DNA of 64,000 bases from Planctomycetota bacterium (GCA_038060895.1 JBBTCT010000036.1:4883-68882); one strand, 5' to 3'; positions 16,501 to 47,632 are shown, numbered from the stretch's first letter. Notes: generated by a model not told the origin, from the sequence alone. Numbers and translations: made by a program.

Positions 16501-16886
16501 ACGAATTCATCGCGGTTGAGTCGCGGAAGCCCGTCAGCGCGGTAACTCCGCAGCCCGAGCTCCCCGTCCTTGACCTCCGTCCCCGCGCCAGGCTCCGGAA
16601 ACCACCCCTGGAAATCCCCCGTCAGTCCGCTTGTCGCCAGGCCCCAATCCTGCCCCCTGAGTCCCTTCATGAACGTGCCCTTCACGCTCTTGCCCGCTTC
16701 TTCCTGGGTCGTCTCAGAGAGCTCGATATCGACGACGAAGGTCTTCGGGCGCGCGGGCCACTCCGGCCAATCGGCGGCGTCCTTGAGGGCATGGCCGGGC
16801 GAGCGACCTGTCCGCCAGATGAGCACCGCTGCGACTCCTGCAGCCACGAGGACTGCAAGAGAAACGAGGATCCTGCGCGGTTTCAC
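13503..16886 (-). CDS. Candidate selenoprotein copy 1: TM anchor / NTF2-like / FG-GAP (CRTAC1-like) / Sec / ASPIC-UnbV / TlpA-like / TPR, 1127 aa with UGA read-through at 15117-15119
   Basis: ORFs 15117..16955 and 13503..14978 are in one frame joined by a single TGA (SAPDW-TGA-TFFWRQVV); intervening 46 codons are open and homologous to paralogues; DxDGDG repeats, HFGL, FWSPTCASC, TPRs. Confidence 0.85.
15088..15119 (-). promoter_or_regulatory. UGA plus SECIS-like hairpin (copy 1)
   Basis: TGA-ACGTTTT-TC-T-GGCGAC-AGGTC-GTCGCC-GA: 6-bp stem, AGGUC loop, bulged U, 2 more pairs. Confidence 0.75.
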
Positions 16887-16965
16887 GTGGATTCCCTCAC
16901 CAGAATGAAACCGGCCCGAACCGTGTGAACGGGTCGGGCCGGAGTGGTCACTCAATCAGCGGAAG

Positions 16966-25196: not shown

Positions 25197-28100
25197 TTGA
25201 TCAGGATTCGGAACTTCGCCGTGGCACTCCTGCTCGCGGCCGCTTCTGCCGGCGCGGGGGACGTCAAGGTGGCGATGCAGCACCAGACTTCCGCCGGCCC
25301 TTCGGTTTCGGTCACGATGATGGAGGGGACGGACTGGAAGGAGGGCCCCTGCGAGAAGATGCTGAGGCTGCCGAAGTTCAGGGGGACGCAGAAGTGGGGC
25401 GAGATCCTGCTCGATGCGGGGTCGGACAAGTCCTTCGCGGTCGTGCTCGACGACGCGGGCCCGGGCGAGGATCTCTTCTATGTGGACGCCAACAACAACG
25501 AGGATCTGACCGACGACGGCGAGCCGGCGAAGCAGTACACAAAGGAAGCGACTTCGCTGGGGAGGTACTGGAAGCTGACGGTCGAGCACGGGAAGAAGGC
25601 GAGCGAGTACCAGATGTATGTGTACACGTACGAGACGAACAAGAAGGGTTTTTCGGCGTATCGCGGGATGGACTGGTGGGAAGGGAACGCGACGCTGGCG
25701 GGGCAGGAGGTGAAGTTCGCGATCGTGGACATGAACTCGAACGGGCGGTTTGACGACCTGGAGAAACTCGCGCTCTGCATCGACTACAACGCGGACGCGA
25801 AATACGACGGGGAGCCGGACTCGAACGAGCGGTGGAACGGCAACGAGCCGTTCGCGGCGGCCGGCAAGGGGTGGGTGCTGAAGTCGGTGAGCGAAGCCGG
25901 CGACGAAGCGGTGATCGCGGAGCATACGGAGGCCGTCGCGATGCGGCCGCCGCTGGGTCCCGGGTCGCCCGCGCCGGAATTCACGGGGACGGACAAAGAC
26001 GGCAACGACGTGTCGCTGGCGGCGCTCGCCGGGAAAGTCGTGCTGGTCCAGTTCTGGACGATGGGGTCGGCGGACGTGACGCTGGCGCTCGACGTGCACA
26101 AGAAGGTTTATGAGGCGTACAAGGACAAGGGATACGAGATCCTCGGCGTCAACCTGGATGCCGACAAGGCGAAGGCGCAGGACTTCGCCGCTTCACACGA
26201 GATGACCTGGCCGATCGTCTACGACGGCCAGATGCTGGAAGGGCAGATCGCGAAGCAGTTCCGGCTCTACACCTATCCGCGGCTGTACCTGGTCGATGCG
26301 GACGGCGTGATCCGGGACAACAGCATCTCGGCCGCGAACGTGGAGAAGGCCGTTGCGGAAATGCTCTCCGACGCGGACGCGGAACCTCTGACGCCCGCGA
26401 AGCCGGCGGATCTCGCGGCGTTCCTGCCGAGGGTCGAAAAGGGGGACTGGTGGCTCGTGTTCCACCAGCGGCGGTCGGAGACAGACGGGGGCGAATTCCT
26501 CCTCTATATGGTAATGGAGGAGTCGGCGGAGCGGCTCGGGATCATCGTGAGTTCGACGTCCGGCTGGTCGTTCGCGCTGGGCGTGGACCGGGCAACCTGG
26601 AACATTGCCAGCGTCAACCCGACCTTCACGGACTGGGACCAGAAGGCGGAGAAGATCCGCATCGCGCCGGAGAAGGACCGGCGCGTGGACCTTCAGGGTT
26701 CGCCCTCCCTCGTCATGCTCCGCCAGTACCCGAACTTCGACGTGCTCTTCCACGCGTTCCCCGGCGGCGTTTCCGGCGTCCTCACCTGCATGACGGAGCA
26801 GTCCGCGGCGGCCACTTTCACGGAAACCGCCCCGATGGCGTGCGAGGCGTTCGTCGACGCGAACGGCCGGCTCGTAGGGAAGTACAAGGCGACGATGGAC
26901 CGGCATGTGGTGCGGGTAAAGCAGACCTGGGAGAAGGGGCTGCCCTTCCCGAGGCGCGTGACGTACTCGAATTCGATCGCAGGTTCGCGCGGGGTGCTCA
27001 CCCTGTGCCGCGCCGGCAAGAAGGTCGGGCTGGCGTTTCCTGCGGTCCCGGCGGCGCACCGGATCGCGGGAATGGACAGCTCGATCGACGACGCGCCGGT
27101 TTCCCGATGTCCTTCACGCAATTTCATCGGCGAAGACGCGGTCGCCGCGGCCTGCGAAAAGCTGGCGCCCGGCAAACCGACCCAGACGCTCGACATGCGC
27201 GGCTCGGGATACTGGAACCGCGGCGACATCATGAAGGTGTACTGGCAGGTGCGGGCGATTCCGAAGGTGCTTTCGGGGCCCAGGCCCGTCCAGGCCGAGA
27301 AGACGGTGGAAATTCCCGTCAGCGGGATCTTCATCCTCGAGTGCGTCGACCTGCGGCGCGTCGGCGACGAAGACCTCGTCTTCGTGCAGGCCTACGGCGA
27401 AGACACGCGGATGTATTCCTACGACACGAACTACGCCAGCCAGCAGGGGCAGCAGGGCCGCACGATCGCCGATCTCCTCTCGGGCACCGGGCCGCTGGTG
27501 TTCTCCAACCCCGAGTACTGGACCGACGCGGACCCGAAGAAGGCGAAGTGGGACCGCGTCGCTTACCTGCGCGGACGCCGGTACTACGGTGGCTACAGCT
27601 TCAGTTCCGCCACCACCGGCAAGCAGTGCACCACCTGGATTCTCGCGCTCCGCCGCGAGGACCTGTCCCTGCGCGCGGCCTACGGATACCACCTTGACTC
27701 CAACCTCAAGGCCGGCGAGTTCGGCGTCGTCGCCGACCAGTTCCAGCACGGCCCCGCTTTCGTCCGACAGTCCCTTCAGCTCGTCCGCCCGCAGGACTGG
27801 ATGCTGATCCAGTCGTTCGCGGGACTGAAGAACGGCGCCGCCAAGGGAAACGTTCTCAACCTCTCGCCGCAGGACGGCGGTTTCTTCCGGCAGGAAATGC
27901 TGAAGAACGAAGACTCGATCACGCAGCTCGTGAAGAACGACAAGTTCTTCACGCAGTTTTCAGAGCTCCTCGCAAAGCGCGCTCCGCCGCCCGAGGTCAA
28001 GAACGGCCAGAAGAAGCGCCAGGCGAAGGTCTCGCTCACGGAGCAGGACGTGGCGAGGCTGGAAGGCGGATTTGCGAACGGGGACTACTCGGGTGTCGTC

Positions 28101-28451
28101 AGGCGCCTGGAGGAGGGCCCGGCGAAGCGCGACCTGGCCGTGTTCCGCACCACGAACGGGCCCGGGCTCTGGGTCTACCAGGGCTACTCGGGGACGTTCT
28201 CGTGGTGGCGCGAGACGCTCGTCCTGAACTGGAAAGAGGGGTACCTCGCACGCCTCCGCATGTATATCCCCGTCCCACCCCGGCCGGGTTCCTGAGACGG
28301 CTGCGGCGACGAGCTTCTGGTAGAAGCTCCCACACCGTCGAAGCCCCCCGCGCCCGTCCCCGGTGGTCCCAAAGGAGATGGCGGCAAGGTCACGCCGCCG
28401 GCGCCGCCGGATGACGGGGGCGCCGAGGTTCCGGTCGATTCGGGAAAGTAG
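25197..28451 (+). CDS. Large exported redoxin (TlpA/AhpC-like)-domain protein; candidate selenoprotein with C-terminal UxxC (TGA 28293-28295), otherwise ending at 28295
   Basis: Signal peptide; APEFTG...GKVVLVQFW...GYEILGVNLD...YPRLYLVDADG thioredoxin fold lacking CxxC; TGA followed in frame by GAC GGC TGC (D-G-C), a Pro-rich tail, then TAG at 28449-28451. Confidence 0.7.
28293..28339 (+). promoter_or_regulatory. UGA plus SECIS-like hairpin (redoxin gene)
   Basis: Lower stem GACGG (28296-28300) / CCGTC (28335-28339); upper stem GAGCTTCT-GGT-AGAAGCTC (28311-28329) with GGU apical loop. Confidence 0.6.
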
Positions 28452-31820: not shown

Positions 31821-31920
31821 AAGCCTTCGCCCTTGCGCCCCTCGGCGCCCTGTGTTAGCTAGGGTGCGCGCTTTCGCATGGCGGAAGCCACCCGAGGTCC
31901 TCGTAGGATGACTTCTGCCC

Positions 31921-34900
31921 TTGCAGACAAAACGCATCCTGCTCGTGCTGCTCGTGCTTGCCGTGGCGGGAGGAGCGGTCGTGCTTTCCCTCCGCAAGTC
32001 CGGCGTGCCGGAGACTCCACGCGGATTCCTCCAGAGGCCCGGAGTGTTCGTTACGGAATTTGAGAAGTCGGAGGCCGTTTTTGACGTCGCCTCCGGGGCA
32101 GTGAAGAAGTCCTTCATGAAGGCCCTCAAGGCGCGGGACTGGGCATCGGCCGCGGCGAGCCTGACGCCGGATTTCAGGGGTCGTTTTCCTCGACTCGCTG
32201 ATGGCGCGGAAGTGCAGGACAGAAACGTCTCCATCCGCGCCTACAAGGCGTCCGGCCTGCCCGAACTGAAGGCCGAAGCGTTTCTCGCCGCCATCCGCGA
32301 GCAGACCGAGGGTTGGACCCAGGTGGAACGGACAACCTGGCGTCCCTTCGAGTTCCTCCTCGATCCGGCCGAGAACCAGGCGTACCTGAGCATTCACTTC
32401 CAGCTTGCCGGCCCGCTTCCGGACGGGAGACGCATCGACCTCGCGGGGGAGGTGAAAGCGATCATCGTCCGCGCCGGGGAGACCTGGAAGGTGCGGGAAC
32501 TGGGGTGGGAGGATGGGAGCAGACTCGAGGCGAAGTTTGTCCCCTGGGCCGACGTGACGGAGCAGACCGGGTTCACGTTCAACGACTCGCCTGAGAACGC
32601 CAGGCTCGTCCAGGAACTCATCAACGCGCGGCGGACCGTCACCGTGGGCGGGCTGATCGCCGCGGACGTCAACGGGGATGGCTTTCCCGACCTGATCTCG
32701 ACGCGCGCGGAACAGGACACGAACGTCTTTCTGAACGACGGACGCGGCGGATTTACCCGCGGCCAGGCGCCCATCCTCGAAGGGAAGCTGTGTCCGAGGA
32801 GTTTTCTGCTGCTCGACCTGGACGGCGACGGCGTCGAGGAACTGGTCAGCGGGTCCATCGACGAGTACGAAGAGGAGCGCGCCTGGGCCGACATCTGGGT
32901 GAGGAACGGGGATTCCTGGAAGCGGCGCCCGCGGGCGCTTGAGTTCCGGATTGCCAGGGCGACCCGGGACATCGCGATTGAGGCCATCGTCCCCACGGAT
33001 GTCGACGGAGACGGACGCCTCGACCTGTATTTCGGCGCCTACAGCACACGAGATTCCCGAACGACGAAATTCAACCGGATTGCGGCCTACGACGGCGCCG
33101 ACAACCTGCTGTTCATGAACCATGGCGGGCTGAAATTCACGGAAGAGTCCGACCAGAGGGGAATCCGTGGAACGCAGTACACGTTTGTCGCCAAGACGTT
33201 CGATTTTGACGGCGACGGCGATCTCGACCTCTGGGACGGAAACGACTACGGCCCCAACGCGCTCTGGCTCAACGACGGAACCGGCAAGTTCGTGGAGGGG
33301 AAGGGTCACATCCTCCAGGAAGGCTCGAACTACACGATGGGCGTGACGATCGCGGACTGGGACAACACGGGCGCCTGGAGCATGTACATCTCCAACATGT
33401 ACAGCCATGCCGGCAATCGAATCGTCCCCCTCGCGGCGGATCTGGGCGAGGACATCAAGAAGGCGGCTCTCGTGCTCGCGGTCGGAAACCAGATGTACGA
33501 GCGGGACGAAAAGACGAAGGCGTGGCGTGAGACGGGCGTATTCCGGGGAGTCAACTGGGCCGACTGGTCCTGGGCCACCCTCTTCCTGGACGGCGACAAC
33601 GACGGCGACAAGGACCTGTTCGTCGCCAACGGATATACGAGCAACCAGGACGCGCAGGCCCCGGACTACTGAACGCACTTCTGGCGACAGGTGGTCGCCG
33701 ATGCACGGCTCATGCAGCAGGGAAAAAATCCGGGAACGTCGTTCTACGAGGGGTCGCAGTGGTTCCGCGGATCGTGGAGCGGATACGAGCGGGACGATTA
33801 CTTCCACAACCCGGACGGCGCCGACCCCCGCTTCTTCCAGTCTTCCTACATCTACGGCCTCGACTTCGACGACGACGGGCGCGCGGGCGTGCCTGTGGAC
33901 ATCGACGGCGACGGGGACCTGGACCTGGCCCTGCAGAGCCTCCAGGGGTTGCGCCTCATGGAGAACACTTCCCCCGCCCGCAATTTCGCCCGGGTTCGCC
34001 TGACGGCGACAAAGACCGAAAATCTCGCCCTCAACGCCGTCGTCAAGGTCATCTCCGCCGGCGTTGCCCAGCAGGACTACGTCCGCCTGACGGACGGGTA
34101 CGCTTCCCAGGTCCCCCGCGAACTGCACTTCGGCCTCGCGGACGCGACGGGCATCGATGAAATCCGGGTGGAGTGGAGATCCGGCGATGTGCAGGTCCTC
34201 AAAGGCCTGCCGGTCAATCGCCTCATCGAGATCACGGAAGGGCAGGAGAAACCCGTCATTTCCGAGCTCAGGAAATGGCCCGACGAATTCCGGCCGAAGC
34301 GCAAACCTCAGTTTTCCTACGACATCGTCGCAGACCGGATCGAGGGAGGCCCGGGCTCCCTGGCTTCCAAGGGCAAGCCCGTCGTGATCAACTTCTGGGC
34401 GCCCTGGTGCGCCGGTTGCGTCGAGGAACTCCCGGAACTGGCGAGAATCGCTTCCGCGAACGCCGGTGAATTCCAGTTCGTCGGCGTCAGCGTCGAAACC
34501 GGAAAGAAGGAAGATGTCCTGAAGGCCATCGCGGATTTCGGGCTGAAATATCCCCAGTTCTACGCGAACGAAGCTCTTCTCCGGAGTTTCTTCGGGGACG
34601 CGGGAGACGCTGCCCTGCCTTCGACTTTCGTGCTGGATGCGCAGGGAAAACTCCGCCGTGTCTTCCGCAGAGCGCTGGGTTCCGGTGAACTGGACGGGGT
34701 TCTCGACTCGTTGAAGCAGGAAGGAACACGTAAGGCGCTCTATTTCCGCCTCGCGGGCGAGAAGGTCGACGCCGGCAGGCCGGATGAAGCGATTCCCTAT
34801 CTCGACAAGGCCCTGGAGATTTCACCCGACGACGCGGAAGCGTGGTTCCACAAAGGCGGCTGCCTGTTCCAGACCGGCAAGGTCGAAGAGAGCGTGGTGG

Positions 34901-35292
34901 CTCTTCAGAAAGCGATCCAGTACGACCCCAGGCATTCGAAGGCGCTCTACAATCTCGGGGTTGCCATGGTCCGGCAGAAGCGGACGCGGGAAGGGATCGA
35001 CCTTTACGAGCAGGCGCTGAAGCTTGAGGGGGAGAATGCCGGGATGCTGATCGCGCTGTCGGTGGCAGCGGCGGAGCTTGAGTTGTGGCCGAAATCGAAC
35101 GATGCGGCGGACCGCGCACTGAAGTCGAATGCGGAGTACGCACCCGCGTGGCTGCAGAAGGGGAAGCTGCTGATCGTGAACAAGGACTACAAGGCTGCGC
35201 GGGAGCACCTGAACAAGGCGCTGGCTTTAGACTCCGGCCTGGCGGAGGCGCGTCAGTACCTGTTCGAACTGGACCGGATGGGCGCGAAGTAG
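31921..35292 (+). CDS. Candidate selenoprotein copy 2 (FG-GAP / ASPIC-UnbV / TlpA / TPR), 1123 aa with UGA at 33670-33672
   Basis: QAPDY-TGA-THFWRQVV in frame; upstream YISNMYSHAGNR and WADWSW; downstream FRGSWSGYERD, HFGL, FWAPWCAGC, TPRs. Confidence 0.85.
33670..33701 (+). promoter_or_regulatory. UGA plus SECIS-like hairpin (copy 2)
   Basis: TGA-ACGCACT-TC-T-GGCGAC-AGGTG-GTCGCC-GA. Confidence 0.75.
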
Positions 35293-35383
35293 ACTACGGG
35301 TCGGCGGCGGGAGAATTCCCCCGGCGAATCCGGTTTCCCGGTCGTCTAAAGCGGATGGTCGCTTCAGTGAGGAGCAGGTATCG

Positions 35384-36019
35384 ATGAAACCGATGTCGGC
35401 GGTCGGGCTGGCTTTGTCGGTGGTGGCTTGCGTGGCGATGGGATGGGCCTCTTCGAAGCTGTCCGCGCTGAGCGGCTCGATCCGGGCGCTGGACACGCGC
35501 GTGGCAGCACTGGAGGGCGGGGGAGGGGGGGAGGACCCGGGTCCGGCCAACGACGATTCCGGGCGATTGCGTGACGAGATGGTGAGGCTCCAGTCCGAAC
35601 TGGCGGACATCCGGGAGTTCCAGAAGAAGCTGGGAGTTTCCGGGACCGGGGACGGCCCCACGCTGGCGGATCTCCGGAAAGCGCTCGAGGAGATCCTCCA
35701 GGAAAAGGAGCTGGCCGCGCGACGCTCGAGAGCGGAGAAGGATCTGGTGAAGGCCAGGGCCCACAATGCGGGGCTCCACAAGACGATCGTGGCGCAGATG
35801 AAGATGTCGGAGGCGCAGGCGGCCCATCTGAAGGACATCCTGGATGCTCAGGTGGAAGCCTACCGGTCCCTGCTCATTGAACGGGCCCAGGATTTCGAGA
35901 TGAAGGCCCGGGAACTGAACAAGGCGACCTCCGGGAAGATCAAGGAGATCCTGGTCGAGGAGCAGAAGCCGTACTGGGATCCTTCCAAGGTAAAGTGGTT
36001 CATCGACACACCCGACTAA
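35384..36019 (+). CDS. Membrane-anchored coiled-coil hypothetical protein, LTXXQ-like helices
   Basis: GAGGAG RBS; N-terminal hydrophobic helix; coiled coil; MKMSEAQ...KEILVEEQ pattern. Confidence 0.65.
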   Translation: MKPMSAVGLALSVVACVAMGWASSKLSALSGSIRALDTRVAALEGGGGGEDPGPANDDSGRLRDEMVRLQSELADIREFQKKLGVSGTGDGPTLADLRKALEEILQEKELAARRSRAEKDLVKARAHNAGLHKTIVAQMKMSEAQAAHLKDILDAQVEAYRSLLIERAQDFEMKARELNKATSGKIKEILVEEQKPYWDPSKVKWFIDTPD

Positions 36020-36031
36020 ACCCGTTCGGAG

Positions 36032-36730
36032 ATGACAGACATGGAGGACCGTGCGGGAGTCGGAGCCGTGGCGCTTGCGATCCTGGGGACGCTGGGCGCT
36101 GCGATTCTGCTGGTGCAGGCAGGCCGGGCGTCCGCCAGCGTGGATGCGCTGAATGCGCGGCTGGACAAGGTGCGCCCGGCCGGGCGCGCTGGAAAGGACG
36201 GGGCGATCCAGAAGGCCGAGGCCGCGCGTCTCGACGGCGAGCTCGCCGCCCTCAAGGCCGCTGCAGAGCAGGCTCGCCGGGCCGCTGAGGGCGGCGTGAG
36301 GATCACCGGCCCGGACGGAAAGCCGATGATTGCCGGCGCCGACCTGAAGGCCCTTGCGGCGAAGACGCATGCGGACTGGGAAGCGGAAACCCATCGCGCC
36401 TGGGCGGATCGGCAGGTGTCGAAGATGAAATCAGTCGCGGCCATGACGACCAAGAACCGTGCTGAGCAGCTCAAATTGTCCGCCGAGCAGCAGGAGAAGA
36501 TGGCAGCCGCACTTAACGACATCCTGGTGCAGTGCCAGCCGATACTGCGGCTTGAATCCGTGCCGGACGACATTCCCGCCTGGATTGACGGGCAACTCGC
36601 GGGCTTTGAGCAGAAGATGCGGGAGGTCATGACACCCGAGCAGTACAAGGCCTACTCGCGCCATCCCGTGAACATCATCGGCGGGCTTCTGTACGACGCG
36701 AAGATCCCGCGCCACGACCAGGGCGAGTAA
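36032..36730 (+). CDS. Membrane-anchored hypothetical protein, LTXXQ (Spy/CpxP-like) motifs
   Basis: N-terminal TM; LKLSAEQQEKM and VMTPEQYKAY motifs; start uncertain (36032 or 36041). Confidence 0.65.
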   Translation: MTDMEDRAGVGAVALAILGTLGAAILLVQAGRASASVDALNARLDKVRPAGRAGKDGAIQKAEAARLDGELAALKAAAEQARRAAEGGVRITGPDGKPMIAGADLKALAAKTHADWEAETHRAWADRQVSKMKSVAAMTTKNRAEQLKLSAEQQEKMAAALNDILVQCQPILRLESVPDDIPAWIDGQLAGFEQKMREVMTPEQYKAYSRHPVNIIGGLLYDAKIPRHDQGE

Positions 36731-36748
36731 GGGCTCGCGTTCGGCGCG

Positions 36749-37252
36749 TCAGCGCGACAGGGTCCGCGTCATGCTGCGCCAGCTCTCCCATTCCTTGTTC
36801 GCGGTGTTGCCCCACTCCTTGGCCTTCTGCCAGTGGGCGTCCGTCACCAGCACGCTGTTGATCTGCCACATCAGGAACACGTTCGGGATCTGGCTGCTGG
36901 CCTCAACGCTGGCCTCCAGGCGGGGAAGCGCCTCCCGCTCCGTGGCAGTCACCTTTTCGTCGGCTTTCGACTTATTGATGTGCTCCTTGACAGCGGCGAG
37001 AAGCGCCGTGAATCCGACGTTGATCTGGTTCAGGGCCTCCACATTCTTCTTGTCCGTGAATTCCTTCTCGTGCTTCTTCCATTCGGCCTGCAAGTCGGAG
37101 TATGCCTTCTCAAGTTCGATGCCCTTCACCGAAAGCTTACCTTCCTTCCCCGGCTCATCACCTACGGATCCGGACATGGAGTACATGCCCACGACGGCGC
37201 CGAAGGCGAGCAGGCCAAGGCCGAGGATGACGACCAGCGCCTTGATGTTCAT
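36749..37252 (-). CDS. Membrane-anchored helical hypothetical protein
   Basis: ATG at 37252, N-terminal TM helix, coding-like codon usage. Confidence 0.65.
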   Translation of the reverse strand: MNIKALVVILGLGLLAFGAVVGMYSMSGSVGDEPGKEGKLSVKGIELEKAYSDLQAEWKKHEKEFTDKKNVEALNQINVGFTALLAAVKEHINKSKADEKVTATEREALPRLEASVEASSQIPNVFLMWQINSVLVTDAHWQKAKEWGNTANKEWESWRSMTRTLSR

Positions 37253-37383
37253 GGCCGGGCATTGTAAGCGCGAGTCGCGAGGACGCAAGGCGGCAGTGGC
37301 GCGATTACGAGGGGCGTTGTCCGGCCGCGCACCCACGGCTATCATGACGTCTTCTCGGGGACGGACCTTACCGGAGTGATCTC

Positions 37384-40300
37384 GTGGCGGACGGCGGGTC
37401 GAACGGCCGGCGCTTCCTGGCGTTCGGGGGAGGCCTGTTGATCCTGGTGCTGGGCGCGATCGCGCTCGTGGCGCTTCTCAAATCGCCGCCCGCCGGGCCC
37501 GGGGAATTCGTCCCCCGCCCGGCCTCGTTCATCTCGGACATCGTGAAGTCCGAGGACGCCTACGACATCGTCAACCCGACCATCAAGGGGACATTCGTCA
37601 AGGGGCTGAAGGGGCGCGACTGGGGGATGGTGGCCTCGTCGCTGGCGCCGGACTTCAAGGCGCGGTGGCCGAAACCCGGCGACGGCAGGGAACTGCCCGA
37701 TGGGGCCATCGCGCTTCGCGAGTACCGCGAGACGCAGTGGCCCGACGCGGACGCGGCGGCGTTCGTCCAGATCCTCAAGGAGCACGTCGACGGCTGGTCA
37801 GCGGTGGAACGCACGACCTGGCGTCCCTTCGAATTCCTCATGGACATCGGCGGCCTCGCGGCCTTCGCGAGCATCCATTTCCAGGTCGCCGGCGTGCGCC
37901 CGGACGGGACGCGCGCGGACCTCGCGGGGCTCGTGCAGGCGCAATTCGTGTCGAAGGACGGGAAGGCGTGGCAGGTGAGGAGGCTGGAATGGGTGGAGGG
38001 GTGCCGCGGCGAAGCGCGGCACAAGCCATGGCGGGATGTGACGGAGGCGTGCGGGCTGACGTTCAACGAAGGCGAGGAAGTTCGCAAGCTGCGCGCGCAG
38101 CTCATCGACGACCGCGGCGTCGTGACGCTGGGTGGGCTGTCGGTCTGCGACTGGAATGGGGACGGGTTCTACGACGTGCTCGCGACGCGCGCGGGGACCG
38201 AGTCGGCGCTTTTCATGAACGACGGAAAGGGCGGTTTCGTGCGTGCGGCGTCGCCGATGAAAGAGGGGCGCGAAGCGGGATTCAGTCCGCTCCTCCTCGA
38301 TCTCGACGGCGACGGGAAGGATGAACTGCTGACCGGGCAAGTGCTTTCCTACGAGAACCAGACGGCGTACATCGGCGTCTACGTGCAGGAGAACGGAGGG
38401 TGGACGCTGCGCCCGAGGGCGCTGGCGGCGCCGCTGGCGAAGGGCACGCGCGCCGTGCTGGTGCAGGGCGTCGAGCCGATGGACGCGGACGGCAATGGGC
38501 TCATAGACCTGTTCTTCTGCAACTATTCCAGCACGGATTCACTCGGCAGGGACTTCAACCGCGTCGCGGCCTACGACGGGATGGACAACTGGCTTTTCAT
38601 GAATTACGGGAAGCTGGATCTTCGCGAAGAATCCGACGGGCGCGGGATCGCCGGGACGCAGTACACGTACGTCGCCAAGGCGTGGGATTTCGACGCGGAC
38701 GGCGATTCCGACATCTTCGAGGGGAACGACTTCGGCCCGAACCACCTCTGGCTGAACGACGGGAAGGCGAATTTCGCGGAAGCGAAGGACCATATTTTCG
38801 GCGCCGACTCGAACTACACGATGGGCGTGTCCATGGCGGACTTCGACAACACGGGCGACTGGACGATGTACATCTCGAACATGTACTCGCACGCCGGGAA
38901 CCGCATCGTGCCGCTGTCGAAGGGGATCAGCCCGGAAATGAAGCGGCTCGGGATGATCCTCGCGCAGGGGAACCAGATGTACGAGCGCAGGGGCGGCGTG
39001 TGGAGCGAGACTGCGGTCGCTCGCGGCACGAACTGGGCGGACTGGGCGTGGTCGTGCCTCTTCTTCGACGCGGACAACGACACCGACAAAGATCTCTTTG
39101 TCGCGAACGGTTTCACGACGAACACGGACCCGAAGGCCCCGGACTACTGAACGCACTTCTGGCGCCAGGTGGTCGCCGACGCGAAGGCCGTGGAGACAGG
39201 GGGGCGGACGTCGCTCACCAACGCGAACATCCAGCGCGACTTCCGCGGGTCTTGGAGCGGCTACGAACGCGACTGCCTCTTCCAGAATCCGGACGGACTG
39301 GCGCCGCGGTTCGTGAACTGCGGGTACCTTTACGGGCTGGACTTCGACGACGACGGGCGGTCGGCCTGCCCGGTGGACATCGACGGCGACGGGGACCTCG
39401 ACATGGTGTGCCTGTCGCTTCAGGGCCTGCGTCTCATGGAAAACACGTCCCCGAAACGGCACTTTGCGCGCATCCGGCTTTCGGCCGGGCCGTCGCACGT
39501 TCTTCCGCTCAACGCACTCGTGAGGGTGACGGCCGGCGGAGTGACCCAGCAGGACACGCTGCGCATCACCGACGGATTCCTCTCCCAGGTCCCCGCCGAC
39601 CTGCATTTCGGGCTCGGCAGCGCGGACAAGATCGACGCAGTCGAGATCACCTGGCCCGGAAGCGGTACGCCGGCGCGATTTTCGGCTCTTCCCGCAAACC
39701 GCCTGCTCGAATTCGTGCCCGGGGAAGCGGCCCCTCGCGTTTCGGAGCTTCGGGCCTGGCCGGCCGAAACGCGGCCGCGGCTGGCGCCCGAGTTTTCGTT
39801 CGCGATTGCGGCGAAGGGGCTCGATGGGAGCGAAGGGCCGCTGGCGGAGAAGGGAAAGCCGGCAGTTGTGAACTTCTGGTCGCCGACGTGCGCGCCGTGC
39901 AAGGAGGAGCTTCCGCTTCTCGCGGCTGCGGCGGACCGGCTCGCGGGACAGGTCCGGTTCGCCGGCGTGAGCACGGAGATCGCCGACGTCGCTTCGGTGA
40001 CTCAAGCGGCCGCCGCGTTCAAGCTCAATTACCCGCAGTTTCTCGCGAACGACGCCCTCGTGCGCAGTTTCTTCGGCGCCGGCGGCGCGGTCATTACGCC
40101 CTCCACGTTCGTCTTCGACGCAGGCGGCCGCCTGCGGCGTGTCTTCCAGCGGACGATCGCGGCAGGCGAGCTGGAAGCCCTGCTCTCGACCTTGAGGGAC
40201 GAGGGACTCTCGGCCTACGACCTCGAGCGCCGTGGGATGCGCTTCATGGACGTCGAGAACTACGAGCAGGCCGCCGCGTTCCTCAAGCAGGCCTCCGACC

Positions 40301-40758
40301 TGCGCGGTGACGACGCCATGCTTCTCTATAATCTCGGCGTCGCGTTACAGCGCCTGGGCCGGAAGGGGGAGTCGCACGCCGCGTTCCTGCGTTCCTTCGA
40401 GCTCGATCCCGGCTATGCGCCGGTCCATCACAATCTTGCGGAAGCCCTCCGGCTGGATTCCCGTTTCGAGGAGGCCGCGGTCCATTACCTCGAGGCGATC
40501 CGGATTCGCGGCGATGAGTACGAGACCTGCTGGGGGCTCGGCGATTGCTGGTCGCGCCTCGGTCGGTCCCAGGAGGCGCTTCTTGCCTTCGACCGAGCGA
40601 TCGCGATGGATTCCCGGCAGACCCGGGCGCTGAAGTCAAAGGCGCTGGAGCTGTCCAAGCTGGGAAAGCCGGGCGAAGCGGCGGCCATCCTGAGAAAGGT
40701 GCTGAGCCTGGCGCCGGGCGACAAGGAAGCCGCCCAGTGGCTGGAGCAGCTCCGGTGA
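37384..40758 (+). CDS. Candidate selenoprotein copy 3 (FG-GAP / ASPIC-UnbV / TlpA / TPR), 1124 aa with UGA at 39148-39150
   Basis: KAPDY-TGA-THFWRQVV in frame; same motifs; FWSPTCAPC; GTG start after GGAG. Confidence 0.85.
39148..39179 (+). promoter_or_regulatory. UGA plus SECIS-like hairpin (copy 3)
   Basis: TGA-ACGCACT-TC-T-GGCG-CC-AGGT-GG-T-CGCC-GA (folds with a 3' bulged U, or with one mismatch in the register of the other copies). Confidence 0.65.
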
Positions 40759-43700
40759 GCGCGCATCCGGCTGTGGGCAGAACAGGAATGCTGGCCGCGG
40801 GAATCGCCGCGTTTCTGGTCACGGTCGGGATCGTCATCGTGATGAAGAGCGGGCAGGGCGCGGCCGCGGCGGCCCCCCTGGCGCGGCCCTCGAAGTACAT
40901 AGTGGATGTGGAGCTCTCCGAGAGGACGTACGAAGTCGCAAACGCGTCTCTGAAGGGACGATTCGTGAAGGGACTGAAGGAGATGGACTGGGAGAAGGCG
41001 CGGGCGGGTTTGGCGACGGGGTTCCGGGGCAGGTTTCCGGCGCCGCTCGAGGGACGGGAAGTTGCGGACGGCTGGGTGGGTGTGCGCGATTACGCCGCAG
41101 CAGGCCTTCCCGAACTCGACGCTGACGCCTTTCTCGGCGTGTTGCGCGACCACCTCGCCGGATGGGCTGTCGTGGAGCGCACGACCTGGCGGCCGTTCGA
41201 GTTCCTGCTCGACCCGGGACTCAAGTCCGCCTACATCAGCCTGCATTTCCAGGTCGCCGGACAGAAACCGGACGGCCTTCGTGCGGACCTGAGCGGCATC
41301 CTGAGCGGCCGGATCGCAAGCGCCGACGGGAAGGACTGGCACATCGAGCGCCTCGAGTGGGTGGAGGGAACGCGCCTCGATTCCTCCCGGCCGCCCTGGG
41401 TGGACATCACGGACGAAACCGGGCTTCACTTCAATGAGTCCGAATCCAACCTCAAGCTCCGCCGCTCGATGATCGACGACCGCGGGCTGACGACCTCGGG
41501 GTCGCTGGTCGTTTCCGACTGGAACCGCGACGGTTTTCCCGACGTGCTGGCCAGCGTTCAGACAGGCATCCTCGCCCTTTTCCTCAACGATGGCCGGGGC
41601 GGCTTCGTCCGCGGAAAGGCGCCGGAAGTTGCTCCCGACCACGTGGCCACCGCCTACGTGGCGCTGGACCTGGATGGGGACGGCACGGACGAGCTTGTGA
41701 GCGGCCTGGTCCAGGTCGATCCCGGAGGGAAGGCGCGATTCCCGGTCTACATCCGCCGCGGAGAAGGCTGGGAAACGCGCTGGATCCGCTTCGACGTCCC
41801 GGTCGGGCTGCACGCCGTGAGCGTCCAGGGAATCGTCCCGGATGACTTCGACCGTGACGGGGACCTCGATCTGTTCTTCTGCTGCTACTCGAATGGCGAC
41901 TCGAAACACGTGGAATTCAACCGGGTCGTCGCCTATGACGGCGCGGACAACTACCTGTTCGTCAACCAGGGCGGATTCGCGTTCACGGAGGAGTCCGACA
42001 CACGAGGCCTCACGGGGACGCAGTACACCTACGTGGCAAAGTGGTGGGACTTCGATTTCGACGGCGATCTAGACCTGTTCGAGGGGAACGACTTCGGCCC
42101 GAACCACCTGTGGCTGAACGACGGCAAGGGGCGGTTTACGGACGCGAAGACGCACATTTTCGACGCGGACACGAACTACACGATGGGCGTCACGATCGCG
42201 GACTGGGAAAACGACGGGACCTGGGGAATGTATATCTCGAACATGTACAGCCATGCCGGGAATCGCGTCTTCCTGCTCGCCGACAACATGGGGCCCGAGA
42301 TGCGCCGGCTGGGGCTGCTGCTCGCGCAGGGGAACCAGTTTTACGAATGCGACCCGAAGAGCCGCGAGTGGCGGGAGACGGCGGTTTCGCGCCGCGTGAA
42401 CTGGGCCGACTGGGCATGGGGCACTTTCTTCTTCGACGCCGACAACGATGGCGACCGAGACCTCTGGGTCACCAACGGCTTCACCACGAACACCGACCCG
42501 AACGCCCCCGACTACTGAACTCACTTCTGGCGGCAGGTCGCCGCCGATGCCCGCGCCCTGGAAACCCGGCGTCGTCCGGAGCAGGATGCCAGGGCCGACC
42601 AGAAATTCCGCGGCTCCTGGAGCGGCTACGAGCGGGATTTCCTCTTCTATAACACCGACGGCCCGTCCGCCACCCTCCCCAACGCCGCCTACCTCTGCGG
42701 CCTCGATTTTGACGACGACGGACGCGCCGCGGCGCCCGTCGATATCGACGGGGACGGGGACCTCGACCTCGTCGTCCTCTCGCTTCAGGGCCTGCGCGTC
42801 GTCGAAAACACCGCTCCCGGCCGGCGCTTTCTTCGGCTCCGACTCGAAGGCGCGAAAGGACAGGCCGACGCGCTCGGCGCGTTGGTAAAGGTCGTGGCGG
42901 GTGGAGTAACGCAGCAGGACTACGCGCGCCTGACCGACGGATTCGCGACGCAGGTGCCGTTCGACCTGCACTTCGGGCTGGGGGAAGCGAAGCTCGCCGA
43001 CCGGGTGGTGGTGACGTGGCCCGGGGGGGAGACCCAGACGGCGCTCGACGTGCCGGCAGACCGGCTGGTCACGATCCGCCGCGGAAAGGACGGATTCGAA
43101 GCCCGCGAACTCCCGGGCTGGCCGGCCGGGTCGCGGCACGGGGTGCGGCCCGCGTTTTCGTTCGTCGAGGCCGCGACGAAGCTGGAAGGTGGTGCGGGAC
43201 CGCTGGCGGCGAAGGGGCGTCCGGCGGTGTTCAATTTCTGGTCGCCTTCCTGCGCTCCCTGCAAGGAAGAGTTGCCGCGCCTGGCCGCGCTTGCCGCGCA
43301 GTACCGCGACGTCGCGCAGTTCGCAGGCGTCTGCGTCGAAACCACGGACCTCGAGGCCGTTCGCGCCGCAGCGAAGTGTTTCGAAATCCCTTACCCGCTC
43401 TTCCTCGCCGATGAAGCCCTGCTCAAGTCCTTCTTCGGTACCGGAGGCGACGTGCCTCTCCCTTCCACTTTCGTGTTCGACGGCAACGGCGACCTCCGAA
43501 GGATCTTTCGCCGCGAGGTCGGGCAGGAAGAGCTGGGCCTGCTTCTCGCCTCCTTCAGCGACGAAGGAACCGGCGCAGCCGAGCTGGACCGGCGCGGCGC
43601 CCGGGCTCACCACCTGGGGAACGATCCCGAGGCCCTCGAGTGGCTGAAGAAAGCGCTGGCCGTGGATCCCGACTCCATGCTCGCGACATACCACATGGGG

Positions 43701-44141
43701 CTCGTGCTTCTGGGACTGGGGCGCCCCGAAGAGGGGATCGCCCACCTGCGTCGCGCCGCCGAACTGGACCCGGAGTACTGGAACGCTTGGTACAACCTCG
43801 GCGCGGCACTTCACAACAGGCGCGACTTCAAGGGTGCCGCCGAAGCCTACCGGAACGCACACAAACTCCGCCCGACCGACATCGTCATCCTCCTGAGTTT
43901 CGGCAATTCGGCGGGAAAGTCCGGCCAGGCCGCGCTCGCCTTCGAGTGCTTCGACCGCGCCGTAGCTCTTCAGCCCGGGAACGCGACGGCGTGGGGGATG
44001 AAGGGCGAGTACCATTTCGTCGTCGGGCAGATTCCCGCGGCGAAGGCGTGTTTTGCGAAAGCGCTCGCGATTGATCCGAATGAGCCGAATTCGCGTGCGT
44101 ACGGCAAAGAGATCGAGAATATTGAAAGGGGAAGAAAGTGA
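40755..44141 (+). CDS. Candidate selenoprotein copy 4 (FG-GAP / ASPIC-UnbV / TlpA / TPR), about 1128 aa with UGA at 42516-42518
   Basis: NAPDY-TGA-THFWRQVA; 121 open conserved codons after the TGA contain no ATG/GTG/TTG; FWSPSCAPC; GTG start overlaps copy 3 stop (alternative ATG 40788). Confidence 0.85.
42516..42547 (+). promoter_or_regulatory. UGA plus SECIS-like hairpin (copy 4)
   Basis: TGA-ACTCACT-TC-T-GGCGGC-AGGTC-GCCGCC-GA; G-C pair replaces the A-U pair of copies 1 and 2. Confidence 0.75.
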
Positions 44142-47100
44142 CCGTGAAACCGCCGGTGGCGCCCGCGAAGCGCGTGCAGATTCCGATGATGATTCCCGCC
44201 TGTTTTCTTGCGCTGGCGGCGATCGTCGCGCTGATGATCTACCTGAAGAACCTACCGAAGTCGACGGGGCCCTTCCTGACGCGCCCGGAGACTTTCGTGA
44301 CGGACTTCGCGAAGTCGGAAGGAGTGCACGACCTTGCCACGAGCGGCGGAACCGACAAGAAGACCGGCGCCGCCGTCAAGGGCGTGAAGGGGACGTTCCT
44401 GAAAGGGATGCGCGAGCGGGACTGGGGGATGATGGCCTCCGGAATGGCGCCGGGTTTCCGGGCCCGCTTCCCGCAAATTGCCGATGGAAAAGAAGTTCCC
44501 GACGGCCTGCTCCGGATCCGGCAATACGAGGGCTCGGAGCTCAAGCGCGAGCTGGACAAGGACGCGTTCACGTCGGTGATGAAGGAGCAGGTCGGCCCGT
44601 GGGCGGCAGTGGAGCGCGCCGTGTGGCGCTCGTTCGAGTTCCTGCTCGACCCGGGTGAAAAGAGTGCGTTCCTCAGTGCCCATTTCCAGCTTGCCGGGAT
44701 TCTCCCGGACGGCGGGCGCGTCGATTTCACGGGAGTCATCCAGGCCCGGGTGATCCGCGACGGCGACGTCTGGAAAGTGAAGCAGTTCGGGCTCGTCGAG
44801 GGGTGGCGGGCGGAATCGAGCTTCATGCCGTTCAACGACATCACCGATCAGGTCGGGCTGGCGTTCAACGAGTCCGAGGAGCGCCGCAAGGTCGCGCAGG
44901 GGCTGATCAACGACCGGGGCGTCGTCACGAGCGGGGGATTGACCGTCGCGGATTTCAATGACGACGGATTTCCCGACATCCTCGCCGCCTCGATCCACAA
45001 CGACGCGATCCTCTTCGTCAACGACGGACAGGGAGGCTTCATCCGCGGACCCGTCGTCACCAATCCGGAGGAATGCGGCCCCTGCTGGCTGTCCGTCGAT
45101 CTCGACGGCGACGGGGTCGAAGAGCTGGTCAGCTCCCAGGTCCTCTCGTACGAGGGCAACAAGGCGAAAGGCGCGATCTATCGCCGCAAGGGCGACGCCT
45201 GGGTGCTCGTTCCGGACGCGCTGGTTTTCCCGATTGGGCAGGGGGAGCGCGACCTTTCGATCCAGGGGATCGTTCCGCACGACGTCGACGGGAACGGACT
45301 CCTCGACCTGTTCTTCTGCGTCTACAGCAACCGCAACTCGAAGGGGCCGAACTACAACCGCGTCGTCGCCTACGACGGCGCCGACAACCATCTCTTCATG
45401 AACAAGGGCCACCTCGCATTCTCCGAGGAGTCCGACGCCCGCGGCATCACGGGGACGCAGTACACCTACGTCGCAAAATTCTGGGACTTCGATTTCGACG
45501 GGGATACGGACCTCTTCGAAGGGAATGACTACGGCCCGAATCACCTGTGGCTGAACGACGGGAAGGGAAAGTTCACCGACGCGAAGAGCCACATCTTCAA
45601 CGCCGATTCGAACTACACGATGGGCGTCACGATTGCCGACTGGGACAACACGGGCGCCTGGTCGATGTACATCTCCAACATGTACAGCCATGCGGGGAAC
45701 CGGATCCTTCCTCTCATGACCGGAGTGAAGGACGACACGAAGCGGCTCGGGCTGGTTCTCGCCCAGGGAAACCAGATGTACGAGTACGTCCCGGCAGGAC
45801 GGCAGTGGACCGAGACCGGCGTCAAGCGGGGCGTGAACTGGGCGGACTGGGCCTGGGCCTGCCTCTTCTGGGATCCCGACAACGACGGCGACCGCGACCT
45901 CTTCGTCGCGGACGGGTACACGACGAATTCCGACCCGAAGGCGCCCGATTACTGAACGTTTTTCTGGCGGCAGGTCGCCGCCGACGCGTCCGCACTGGAG
46001 AAGAAGGAGCAGGCATCCCTCGCCCGCAGCGAGGAGGACGCGCGTTTTCGCGGCTCCTGGAGCGGCTACGAGCGCGATTTTCAGTTCCACAACGCCGACG
46101 GGCCGTGCCCGGTTTTCTTCAATACGGCGTACCTGTGCGGCCTCGACTTCGACGACGACGGTCGCGCGGCCGCTCCTGTCGATATCGACGGGGACGGTGA
46201 CCTCGACCTCGTCCTGCTCTCGCTGCAGGGCCTGCGCGTCATGGAAAACCGCATGCCGCGAAGGCGCTTCGCGCGCCTCCGCCTCACCGCGACCACGACT
46301 GAGCCCCTCGCCCTCGGCGCCATCGTGTCTCTCACCGCCGGCGGCGTTACGCAGCAGGACTACGTCCGCATCACCGACGGGTTCATGACACAGGTCCCGC
46401 GCGAACTTCATTTCGGCATCGGCAACGCCGATAAAATCGACCGCATCACCGTTCGCTGGCCGGGCGGGAACGCGAAGGTCTATTCGGACATCCCCGCCGA
46501 CCGCCTGGTGGAAATCCGGGAGGACGAAGCGGCGCCGAAGGTGTCCGAGCTTCCGGCCTGGCCCGAGGCCACGCGCCCGAAGGCGCGCCCGTCATTCTCG
46601 TTCGAGACGGCCCTCGATCGGCTGGCGGGCGGAAAGGCGCCGCTCGCCACGACAGGAAAGCCCGCGGTCGTGAACTTCTGGTCCCCGACGTGCGCACCGT
46701 GCAAGGAGGAACTGCCGCGCCTGGCCGCGCTGGCGAGAGAATTCGGCGACCGCGTGCAGTTCGCGGGGGTCTCCGCCGAGTCGAAGGATCTTGAATCCGT
46801 TAGGAAGTCGGTCGCCGACTTCGGCGTCCCCTACCCGCAATTCCTGGCTAACGAGGCCTTCCTCAAGAGCTTCTTCGGCACCGGGGACGCCATTCTCCCC
46901 TCGACCTTTGTTTTCGACGGCGCCGGCCGCCTGCGGCAGTCCTTCCACCGCGCGATCTCACAGCCCGAGCTTGCTGCGCTCCTGGAATCCTTCCGCGAGG
47001 AATCCGTCGCCGCCGCCGATCTCGTCGCGCGAGGCTCCGCCCTCATCCAGAGCGGGGACTTCGAAGCGGCCGCCCGCTTCCTGCATGACGCCGTCAAGGC

Positions 47101-47632
47101 CGACCCGGAGTCTTCCGCGGCACTTAATCAACTGGGCACGGCGCTGAGCGGGGTTGCGGGGTCCATTGAATCGGGAAAAACGCCCGCGGCCGACGCCGCC
47201 GAAGCAGAACGTCGCCGGCAGCAGGCCATTCCGAAGTGGGAGGAAGCCATTGTCTGGCTTCAGCGGGCCGTCGCTCTCGACGCCGACTTCTCCGAGGCGC
47301 AGTACAACCTCGGCGTGGCTCTCCAGCGCACAGGCCGCTACGAGGCCGCGATCAAGGCACTGGAGGAGGCGCTTCGCGTCGTCCCGAATTCCTACGACTC
47401 CCTCTATTCTCTCGGGATGTCGGCGGGGGCGGCCAGGCAGAACGCCCTCGCGGGGGACGCCTTCGAGCGGGCGATCGTGCTCGCGCCCCGCCGCCCCGAG
47501 GCGTGGGTTGGAAAAGGGCTGTGGCTGCGCCAGATAGGGAAGATGGAGGAGGCGAAGAGCGCGCTTCAGAAGGCGGTTGAGCTCGACCCCTCGAATGAGG
47601 AGGCCCGTGGCATCCTCCAGGGGATGCCATAG
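44138..47632 (+). CDS. Candidate selenoprotein copy 5 (FG-GAP / ASPIC-UnbV / TlpA / TPR), about 1164 aa with UGA at 45953-45955
   Basis: KAPDY-TGA-TFFWRQVA; 95 open conserved codons before the first downstream start; FWSPTCAPC; GTG start overlaps copy 4 stop. Confidence 0.85.
45953..45984 (+). promoter_or_regulatory. UGA plus SECIS-like hairpin (copy 5)
   Basis: TGA-ACGTTTT-TC-T-GGCGGC-AGGTC-GCCGCC-GA. Confidence 0.75.

Follow-up and report, generated by a model that had tools for sequence, protein, structure and literature searches.

A probable bacterial SECIS hairpin overlapping a conserved protein motif in FG-GAP/ASPIC selenoprotein candidates of a Planctomycetota bacterium

The DNA analysed here is a stretch of 64,000 nucleotides (nt) from a Planctomycetota bacterium (GCA_038060895.1, JBBTCT010000036.1; G000:C36:4883–68882, termed the window), which belongs to an assembly of 5.4 Mb in 47 contigs that is 86.5% complete. 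The window, whose DNA is 65% G+C, carries five paralogous frames of 1124–1199 codons (proteins of about 1150 residues), each with exactly one internal in-frame TGA, and 10 nt past every one of these TGA codons lies a 6-bp stem capped by an AGGU[C/G] loop, as proposed in a first, sequence-only reading and borne out in 5 of the 5 copies. Each hairpin is very probably a bacterial selenocysteine insertion sequence (bSECIS) embedded in a selenoprotein gene's coding sequence, to which SelB would bind so that selenocysteine (Sec) is inserted at the UGA. This proposal, also part of the first reading, is supported by the Sec machinery of the genome, by covariation in the stem, by constraint at synonymous sites and by the loss of pairing in one clade of homologues with a sense codon.

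When the ribosome nears the in-frame UGA, SelB with Sec-tRNA(Sec) would bind the apical AGGUN loop of a 6–7-bp stem, whose start 10 nt past the UGA would place the loop G-U at nt 22–23 counted from the U of UGA. Sec would then be inserted in place of termination, and the hairpin would be melted and read as W-R-Q-V-(V/A)-A. Because these bases also code for a conserved protein motif, the stem would be kept up in three ways: through codon choice (Arg as CGA or CGG, never CGC; Val/Ala as NNC; Ala as GCC), through coupled changes of the Arg third base and the Val/Ala second base by way of a G-U intermediate, and through exclusion of residues unable to pair at positions +8 and +9 relative to Sec. 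The family provides a clean natural case of a bacterial SECIS and a conserved protein motif sharing bases, with a stepwise replacement of A-U by G-U and then G-C, the second step costing Val-to-Ala, and with sense-codon homologues as an internal control.

Hairpin and covariation downstream of the in-frame UGA

The pattern TGA-N10-GGCGNC-AGGTN-GNCGCC has exactly 5 matches in the window against 0.05 expected, a number reached by 0 of 100 shuffles (Table 1). A looser regular expression gives 11 hits genome-wide, 6 of them in these genes. The stem DNA translates as W-R-Q-V-(V/A)-A. The pattern search returns GGCGAC/GTCGCC for copies 1 and 2 and GGCGGC/GCCGCC for copies 4 and 5, and the translations show the switch from A-U to G-C to consist of the synonymous change CGA to CGG on one arm and of GTC to GCC, a Val-to-Ala change, on the other, just as the sequence-only reading had described it. 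The predicted hairpin lies within the lowest-energy fold of 5/5 copies. In copy 3 this fold is the anticipated rearrangement, with an AGGU loop, CC/GG pairs, a bulged U and GGCG/CGCC. Copy 1 is located on the minus strand as claimed, although the start first assigned to it, 15088, takes in the two bases GA beneath the stem. A further claim, that all copies can add a bulged U and UC/GA pairs below the stem, holds as far as such pairs can be formed in all five; the extension is unsupported among relatives. It was dropped because U11 and A32 are unpaired in 8 of the 43 relatives and because RNAalifold did not choose it, preferring a U13-G31 wobble.

Homologues occur in 14 of 41 related genomes, and 63 of the 65 matches have exactly one in-frame TGA; one of the two exceptions stops short of the column and the other has GAG. 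Genomes of the same genus have 3–10 matches each, distant paralogues included. The genome itself holds a sixth copy of the hairpin at C24:200004 on the minus strand (locus C24:199477–200436) and a further paralogue with its own TGA on C30 (C30:15657–16601), which is 28% identical. UGA forms are also found in Vicinamibacterales (Acidobacteriota), in an Akkermansiaceae metagenome-assembled genome (MAG) and in another Acidobacteriota MAG; among the 60 loci on named genome contigs that extend across the column, these forms number 11. The same hairpin element follows the UGA in homologues of Planctomycetota, Acidobacteriota and Verrucomicrobiota.

A gene caller run in standard mode cuts all five window genes in two at the TGA, as would be expected if the UGA were a real stop in split genes or pseudogenes, with the hairpin serving termination or re-initiation. 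This explanation is extremely improbable. In 84 distinct fragments, drawn from three phyla, a single TGA occupies one and the same column, the reading frame and the domain order run on across it, full-length homologues of the same architecture have a sense codon at this place, and the genome has a complete Sec machinery. With the UGA read as Sec, the consensus UGA-N10-GGCGRC-AGGUN-GYCGCC becomes a practical marker for mending the gene calls that split these genes.

The covariation alignment covers the 45 nt from the TGA in 43 distinct sequences; it takes in the unique relatives of at least 50% identity known at that point together with the C24 copy, and leaves out seven family-f18 Sec forms found later. 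On the structure as stated for this alignment, 96.2% of the 344 stem cells pair, and both-sided changes are found in 4 of the 8 pairs. The observed pairing and covariation score were reached by 0 of 500 shuffles, while slid controls are 19–79% paired. RNAalifold, unprompted, recovers the same helix and lengthens it by the U13-G31 wobble, which pairs in 43/43. The variable pair 18:26 is A-U in 20 sequences, G-C in 16, G-U in 5, C-U in 2 and A-C in 0. The G-U forms (CGG together with GUC) are the expected intermediates, in which the synonymous A-to-G change has occurred and the U-to-C change that costs Val-to-Ala has yet to follow. In L107 the closing pair is changed from C-G to U-A, with Gln replaced by Ser and Val by Ile, and in L018 two further pairs are changed and encode WSRSVT. 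Position 2 of the loop (G21) is invariant (43/43); the loop is mostly AGGUN, with AGUUR in 6 of the 43.

More distant UGA subfamilies display a hairpin at the equivalent place, built from other codons. FWRQxxSQ forms pair GCGAC with GUCGC around a 7-nt AGGNNNU loop, the 3' arm coming from the x-Ser-Gln codons in a different register, and EFNTGAV forms read GGCGC GGUC GCGCC. PPFWKSVV forms have a GCGU GGUC ACGC hairpin with covariation at two synonymous sites, C-G (AGC with ACG) in 8 and U-A (AGU with GCA or CCA) in 5. This is the weakest subfamily: the small GGUC hairpin was read by eye, and the helix given by RNAalifold takes in the UGA and is missing from both L020 and L033. Strong hairpins are present in L062 and L032, where the loops read GUC and CGUG. 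In a scan applied uniformly, for stems of at least 4 bp with a loop beginning [N]GGU and a start 14–24 nt past the codon, hits were obtained in 72 of the 84 distinct UGA fragments, compared with 4 of 27 sense fragments and 2.3% of the other in-frame positions (559 of 24,296). Twelve UGA fragments were missed: six forms whose stems are intact but whose loops read AGUUR, copy 3 of the window, and five distant forms.

Codon constraint, sense-codon homologues and alternative explanations

A hairpin could also arise as a by-product of encoding W-R-Q-V-V-A in G+C-rich DNA and have no RNA function, a possibility that gains some weight from three of the six stem pairs being fixed by the amino acids alone, from insignificant fold z-scores of single copies and from the conservation of the motif in proteins without Sec. 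It is very unlikely all the same and is largely refuted by codon choice. The stem Arg (n=42) is encoded by CGA in 20, CGG in 21 and CGC in 1, whereas the 895 Arg codons elsewhere in the same genes are CGC in 47%, CGG in 36% and CGA in 4.2%; CGA is thus 11-fold enriched and CGC nearly excluded. Similarly, Ala at +9 is GCC in 33 of 38 against a baseline of 41%. The Val whose third base is the last base of the loop is free at that base (G10, C16, T9, A1). The by-product explanation is further opposed by L018 and L107, which retain the stem despite changed amino acids, by the other subfamilies, which form the stem from different codons or in a different register, and by sequences with an identical WRQVVA motif, where 18 of the 20 Sec forms but none of the 6 sense forms make 6/6 pairs.

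W+4, R+5, Q+6, V+7 and D+10 are equally conserved in 22 sense-codon forms and 50 Sec forms, and the core FWRQV is therefore a constraint at the protein level. At +8, Sec forms have V29, A20 and I1 and sense forms V7, L6, A5 and I4; at +9 the counts are A44, V5 and T1 against A12, D7, T2 and E1. Of the sequence-only claim that FWRQV is partly constrained by RNA, the part concerning the core motif does not stand; what remains is narrow, a limit set by the RNA on codon choice and on two residues, with Leu excluded at +8 and Asp and Glu at +9.

In the nearest full-length relatives without Sec, the Sec column is occupied by Gln, Glu, Asp, Asn or Ser, not Cys; a protein search counts Gln 13, Asn 11, Glu 10, Ser 8 and Asp 4. 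Cys is found there only in 22 more distant and shorter 'CRTAC1 family' proteins (DYCTTFWRHD), a count that leaves out four window proteins in which C stands for U. In the Planctomycetota family f18, 36 of 121 genomes matched, and the 46 matches divide into 16 with one TGA and 30 with none. When distinct sequences with the motif WRQ[VIL][VAI][ATV] are compared (rows such as WRQVLDD, WRSVIA and WRRVAV being dropped), 42 of 46 Sec forms have 6/6 pairs and the other 4 have five. In contrast, 6/6 pairs occur in 0 of 13 sense forms (Gln, Glu, Asp, Asn), of which 4 have five pairs, 5 have four, 3 have three and 1 has two; their motif Arg is CGC in 6, CGG in 4, CGT in 2 and AGA in 1. The loss of pairing foreseen for sense-codon homologues is thus observed in this clade. 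Without the motif filter the figures for 6/6 pairs are 45/50 Sec forms and 0/23 sense forms, the 23 including a few places fetched twice. SelB was found in 5 of 5 sense-form genomes tested and in 4 of 5 Sec-form genomes, the miss being G506 (90% complete). Since the sense-form genomes have SelB, the hairpin follows the codon and not the genome.

Several observations weigh against the bSECIS reading. Fold energies of single copies are no better than those of shuffles (z −0.07 to −1.80); stability alone proves nothing in DNA of 65% G+C, so the z-scores were not used as evidence and the case for the hairpin is comparative. On a tree from which the motif columns were left out, as few as 3 changes or more are required for the A-U/G-C state and 10 for a four-state label; the covariation is real, although its independent events are modest in number. 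On the tree there is a single change between the Sec and the sense state, giving one independent pair only. The Mann-Whitney p for Sec against sense overstates the contrast, because the rows are related and represent one event, and it is not relied on; as the contrast is not phylogenetically independent, the argument rests on the saturated synonymous sites within each clade. An AGUUG or AGUUA loop without GGU is present in 6 of the 84 UGA fragments. Rfam release 15 yields no match at the gathering score in the window, and at E≤10 bases 33600–33800 give only a spurious 13-bit HIV-1_SD hit (E=7). Two FWRQxxSQ-type sense forms, L124 (GAG) and L180 (AAC), keep the GCGNC/GUCGC pairing. Finally, a second sense clade of 77 distinct metagenome sequences (L189–L268), all with AAC or AAT at the column and the motif NSFFWRQVVA, lacks the clean loss of pairing of the first: 6/6 pairs form in 26 of the 77, against 11.4% expected from the clade's own codon usage, and its motif Arg has the highest CGG share among 38 conserved Arg columns (61% against a background of 22%).

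The two last points would be accounted for by an RNA role independent of Sec, such as ribosome pausing for propeller folding or mRNA stability, co-opted or coincident at the UGA. Such a role is nonetheless quite unlikely. The three free sites pair in 68–73% of the Asn-clade sequences against 93–100% in Sec forms. In this clade the Val column ranks 4/11 and the Ala column 6/43 beside the first rank of the Arg column, and columns of this kind are as a rule dominated by one codon (mean 54%); the clade can therefore be explained well enough by inertia or by a relic of a Sec ancestor. In addition, pairing is wholly lost in the Gln/Glu/Asp clade, and the geometry fits SelB-type elements. The Asn-clade pairing may reflect inertia, a relic of a Sec ancestor or a second RNA role, and a bSECIS remains the preferred explanation of the hairpin in the UGA forms.

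Selenocysteine machinery, host proteins and locus

The genome encodes SelB (344 bits against a cut-off of 242; C1:134888–136777), SelA (541 bits; selA at C4:24942–26297) and SelD (364 bits; C2:48628–49548), the last with an in-frame TGA of its own. ARAGORN finds two tRNA-SeC(tca) genes, at C1:472898–472990 and at C4:13533–13625, the latter about 11 kb from selA. TGA is not a reassigned codon, because paralogues 3 and 4 end in TGA stops. Three TGA genes of classic type accompany the machinery: a thioredoxin-like UxxC protein (L181), a Redoxin/ResA-like UxxC protein (L182) and an AhpD-like CxxU protein (L183; TIGR01926, 95 bits against a cut-off of 82). Like the window genes, they have a hairpin after the in-frame TGA with a GGUA or GGUC loop; unlike those of the window genes, their stems are of 5–8 bp, their loops of 4 nt and their starts 17–31 nt past the UGA, and no sequence is shared outside the loop.

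Separately, three more frames with one TGA each, candidate selenoproteins, combine a strong coding signal on either side of the TGA with a GGU-loop hairpin (C14:41310, L184; C1:411175–412617, L185; C20:13831–15015, L186). One of them (VVETG-U-CVGFG, with a stem of 8 bp) is an FG-GAP protein of a second kind; neither of the others (…SMSMC-U-GGTPKD… and …KNGGW-U-PAAEV…) is matched by Pfam or NCBIfam.

Most of the interest lies in the host protein family rather than in the RNA element. Pfam identifies FG-GAP_3 repeats, UnbV_ASPIC, Redoxin/AhpC-TSA (thioredoxin-like, with CxxC) and TPRs in the window frames, and the Sec motif reads PD[YWF]-U-T-x-[FY]-W-R-Q-V. NCBIfam has no model that names the host protein family, and no NCBIfam selenoprotein model matched. 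A CxxC follows the Sec at a distance of 244–252 residues in 28 of 35 Sec forms; none of the 22 sense-codon forms has one at this place, and the co-occurrence is an association at the level of clades. Of the 7 Sec forms without this CxxC, 4 read U-T-C at the Sec site, and the Asn forms keep only the second Cys of the CxxC motif. This pattern suggests that the Sec and the fused TlpA-like CxxC domain work together as a redox relay. FG-GAP_3 and UnbV_ASPIC domains are common to the window proteins and to the CRTAC1/ASPIC-UnbV/FG-GAP (VCBS) proteins; in contrast to CRTAC1-type proteins, the window proteins add a membrane anchor, a thioredoxin-like CxxC and TPRs and are predicted to use Sec. Human CRTAC1 (9etn) is the sole solved relative found (E=1.4e-5).

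A review of prokaryotic selenoproteins includes a table of 119 families (PMC13188914, Appl Environ Microbiol 2026). The host domain names (FG-GAP, ASPIC, CRTAC, VCBS, propeller, TPR) are absent from its open-access text and family table, and searches of the open-access literature yielded nothing relevant on selenoproteins with FG-GAP, UnbV or CRTAC1. The putative FG-GAP/ASPIC, thioredoxin-like and TPR selenoprotein family thus appears to be uncatalogued, a provisional statement that applies to open-access texts without their supplementary tables. By its sequences the family is expanded to 3–10 copies per genome in one Planctomycetota genus and is present also in Acidobacteriota and Verrucomicrobiota. 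The fuller proposal, that the window proteins represent an uncatalogued family of membrane-anchored FG-GAP/ASPIC Sec propellers fused to a TlpA-like thioredoxin domain and TPRs, in which Sec and CxxC form one redox relay, is advanced tentatively and is somewhat less probable than its opposite. Should the family prove to be uncatalogued, Planctomycetota and soil Acidobacteriota would gain a large extracytoplasmic selenoprotein that occurs in multiple copies, and a catalytic or redox residue would be suggested for the poorly understood CRTAC1/ASPIC-UnbV fold.

Paralogues 3–5 look like one tightly packed transcription unit, because their starts and stops are closely spaced or overlap (Table 1). 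The last 214 nt of paralogue 3 also lie within the open frame of paralogue 4, whose true start is probably the ATG near 40788, just past the stop of paralogue 3. The GTG start of paralogue 5 overlaps the TGA stop of paralogue 4 (GTGA at 44138–44141). The start of paralogue 2 is uncertain, a GTG at 31852 being likewise open. Pfam finds no match in nine of 10 neighbouring frames, which gives no operon clue. On the plus strand, positions 25197–28292 of the window hold a frame of 1032 residues with AhpC-TSA/Redoxin at residues 256–383 and no other Pfam match.

Table 1 Features of the five paralogous genes, in window coordinates unless a contig is named; Sec-UGA denotes the predicted Sec codon and SECIS hairpin the putative element.
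Feature	Position	Strand	Description
Paralogue 1	13503–16955	-	1150-aa frame, Sec613; membrane anchor, FG-GAP/ASPIC propeller, thioredoxin-like CxxC, TPR
Paralogue 1, homology basis	G000:C36:19486–20427		1 TGA in match
Sec-UGA of paralogue 1	15117–15119	-	
SECIS hairpin 1	15090–15106	-	GGCGAC AGGUC GUCGCC; pattern match 15119–15090
Paralogue 2	31921–35292	+	1123 aa, Sec584; FG-GAP_3, UnbV_ASPIC, Redoxin/AhpC-TSA, TPR
Sec-UGA of paralogue 2	33670–33672	+	
SECIS hairpin 2	33683–33699	+	GGCGAC AGGUG GUCGCC; pattern match 33670–33699
CxxC of paralogue 2	34408–34419	+	
Paralogue 3	37384–40758	+	1124 aa, Sec589; ordinary TGA stop
Sec-UGA of paralogue 3	39148–39150	+	
SECIS hairpin 3	39161–39177	+	GGCGCC AGGUG GUCGCC; one C-U mismatch; AGGU-loop refold with bulged U; pattern match 39148–39177
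Paralogue 4	40545–44141 (open frame)	+	in-frame TGA at frame codon 658; ordinary TGA stop
Sec-UGA of paralogue 4	42516–42518	+	
SECIS hairpin 4	42529–42545	+	GGCGGC AGGUC GCCGCC; pattern match 42516–42545
Paralogue 5	44138–47632	+	1164 aa, Sec606
Sec-UGA of paralogue 5	45953–45955	+	
SECIS hairpin 5	45966–45982	+	GGCGGC AGGUC GCCGCC; pattern match 45953–45982

Comparison with known SECIS elements

The general bSECIS model of bSECISearch, as given in the Fig. [quoted passage not shown] The window element lies within all four constraints of the model as described there. Its loop of 5 nt and stem of 6 bp (7 with the U-G wobble) are inside the limits, as is copy 3, whose loop has 4 nt and whose bulged stem has 2+4(+1) bp, and the A-G-G-U loop agrees with the G rule. 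UGA and loop are 16 nt apart (10 nt and the 6 nt of one stem arm), which is the very lower bound. The minimum free energy is −13.5 to −16.7 kcal/mol per 45 nt, no better than that of shuffles; for the hairpin alone in copy 4 the value is −13.5 kcal/mol, and that of the centroid −13.1 kcal/mol. Overlap with a conserved protein motif makes the element unusually uniform.

The Escherichia coli fdhF element, read from NC_000913.3, has its upper stem about 11 nt past the UGA and an AGGUCU loop, as the sequence-only reading had stated. Like the window element, it lies in the coding region directly past the UGA and has a short G+C-rich stem. The upper stem starts 11 nt past the UGA in fdhF and 10 nt past it here, and the fdhF loop AGGUCU (GGUC) corresponds to AGGUC or AGGUG. 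Counted from the U of UGA, the loop G-U is G23-U24 in fdhF and G22-U23 in the window, one nt apart. G23, U24 and the bulged U of fdhF are the SelB contacts. The fdhF U is bulged inside the upper stem (GGU-U-GC), whereas the stem is uninterrupted in 4 of the 5 window copies, where the only candidate bulge, U13, is located beneath the stem and is better taken for part of a U-G wobble; the bulged U of the first reading does not correspond to that of fdhF. Also in contrast to fdhF, in which a long lower helix leads back to the UGA, no lower helix is conserved here. The first reading had further taken the element for a lineage-specific SECIS, a view left unsupported by its agreement with the general bSECIS model, by the fdhF-like position of the loop G-U, by its occurrence in three phyla and by the GGUA or GGUC loops of three other selenoprotein genes of the same genome. 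The hairpin is a canonical bSECIS in form, and its specificity is for a gene family, not for a lineage.

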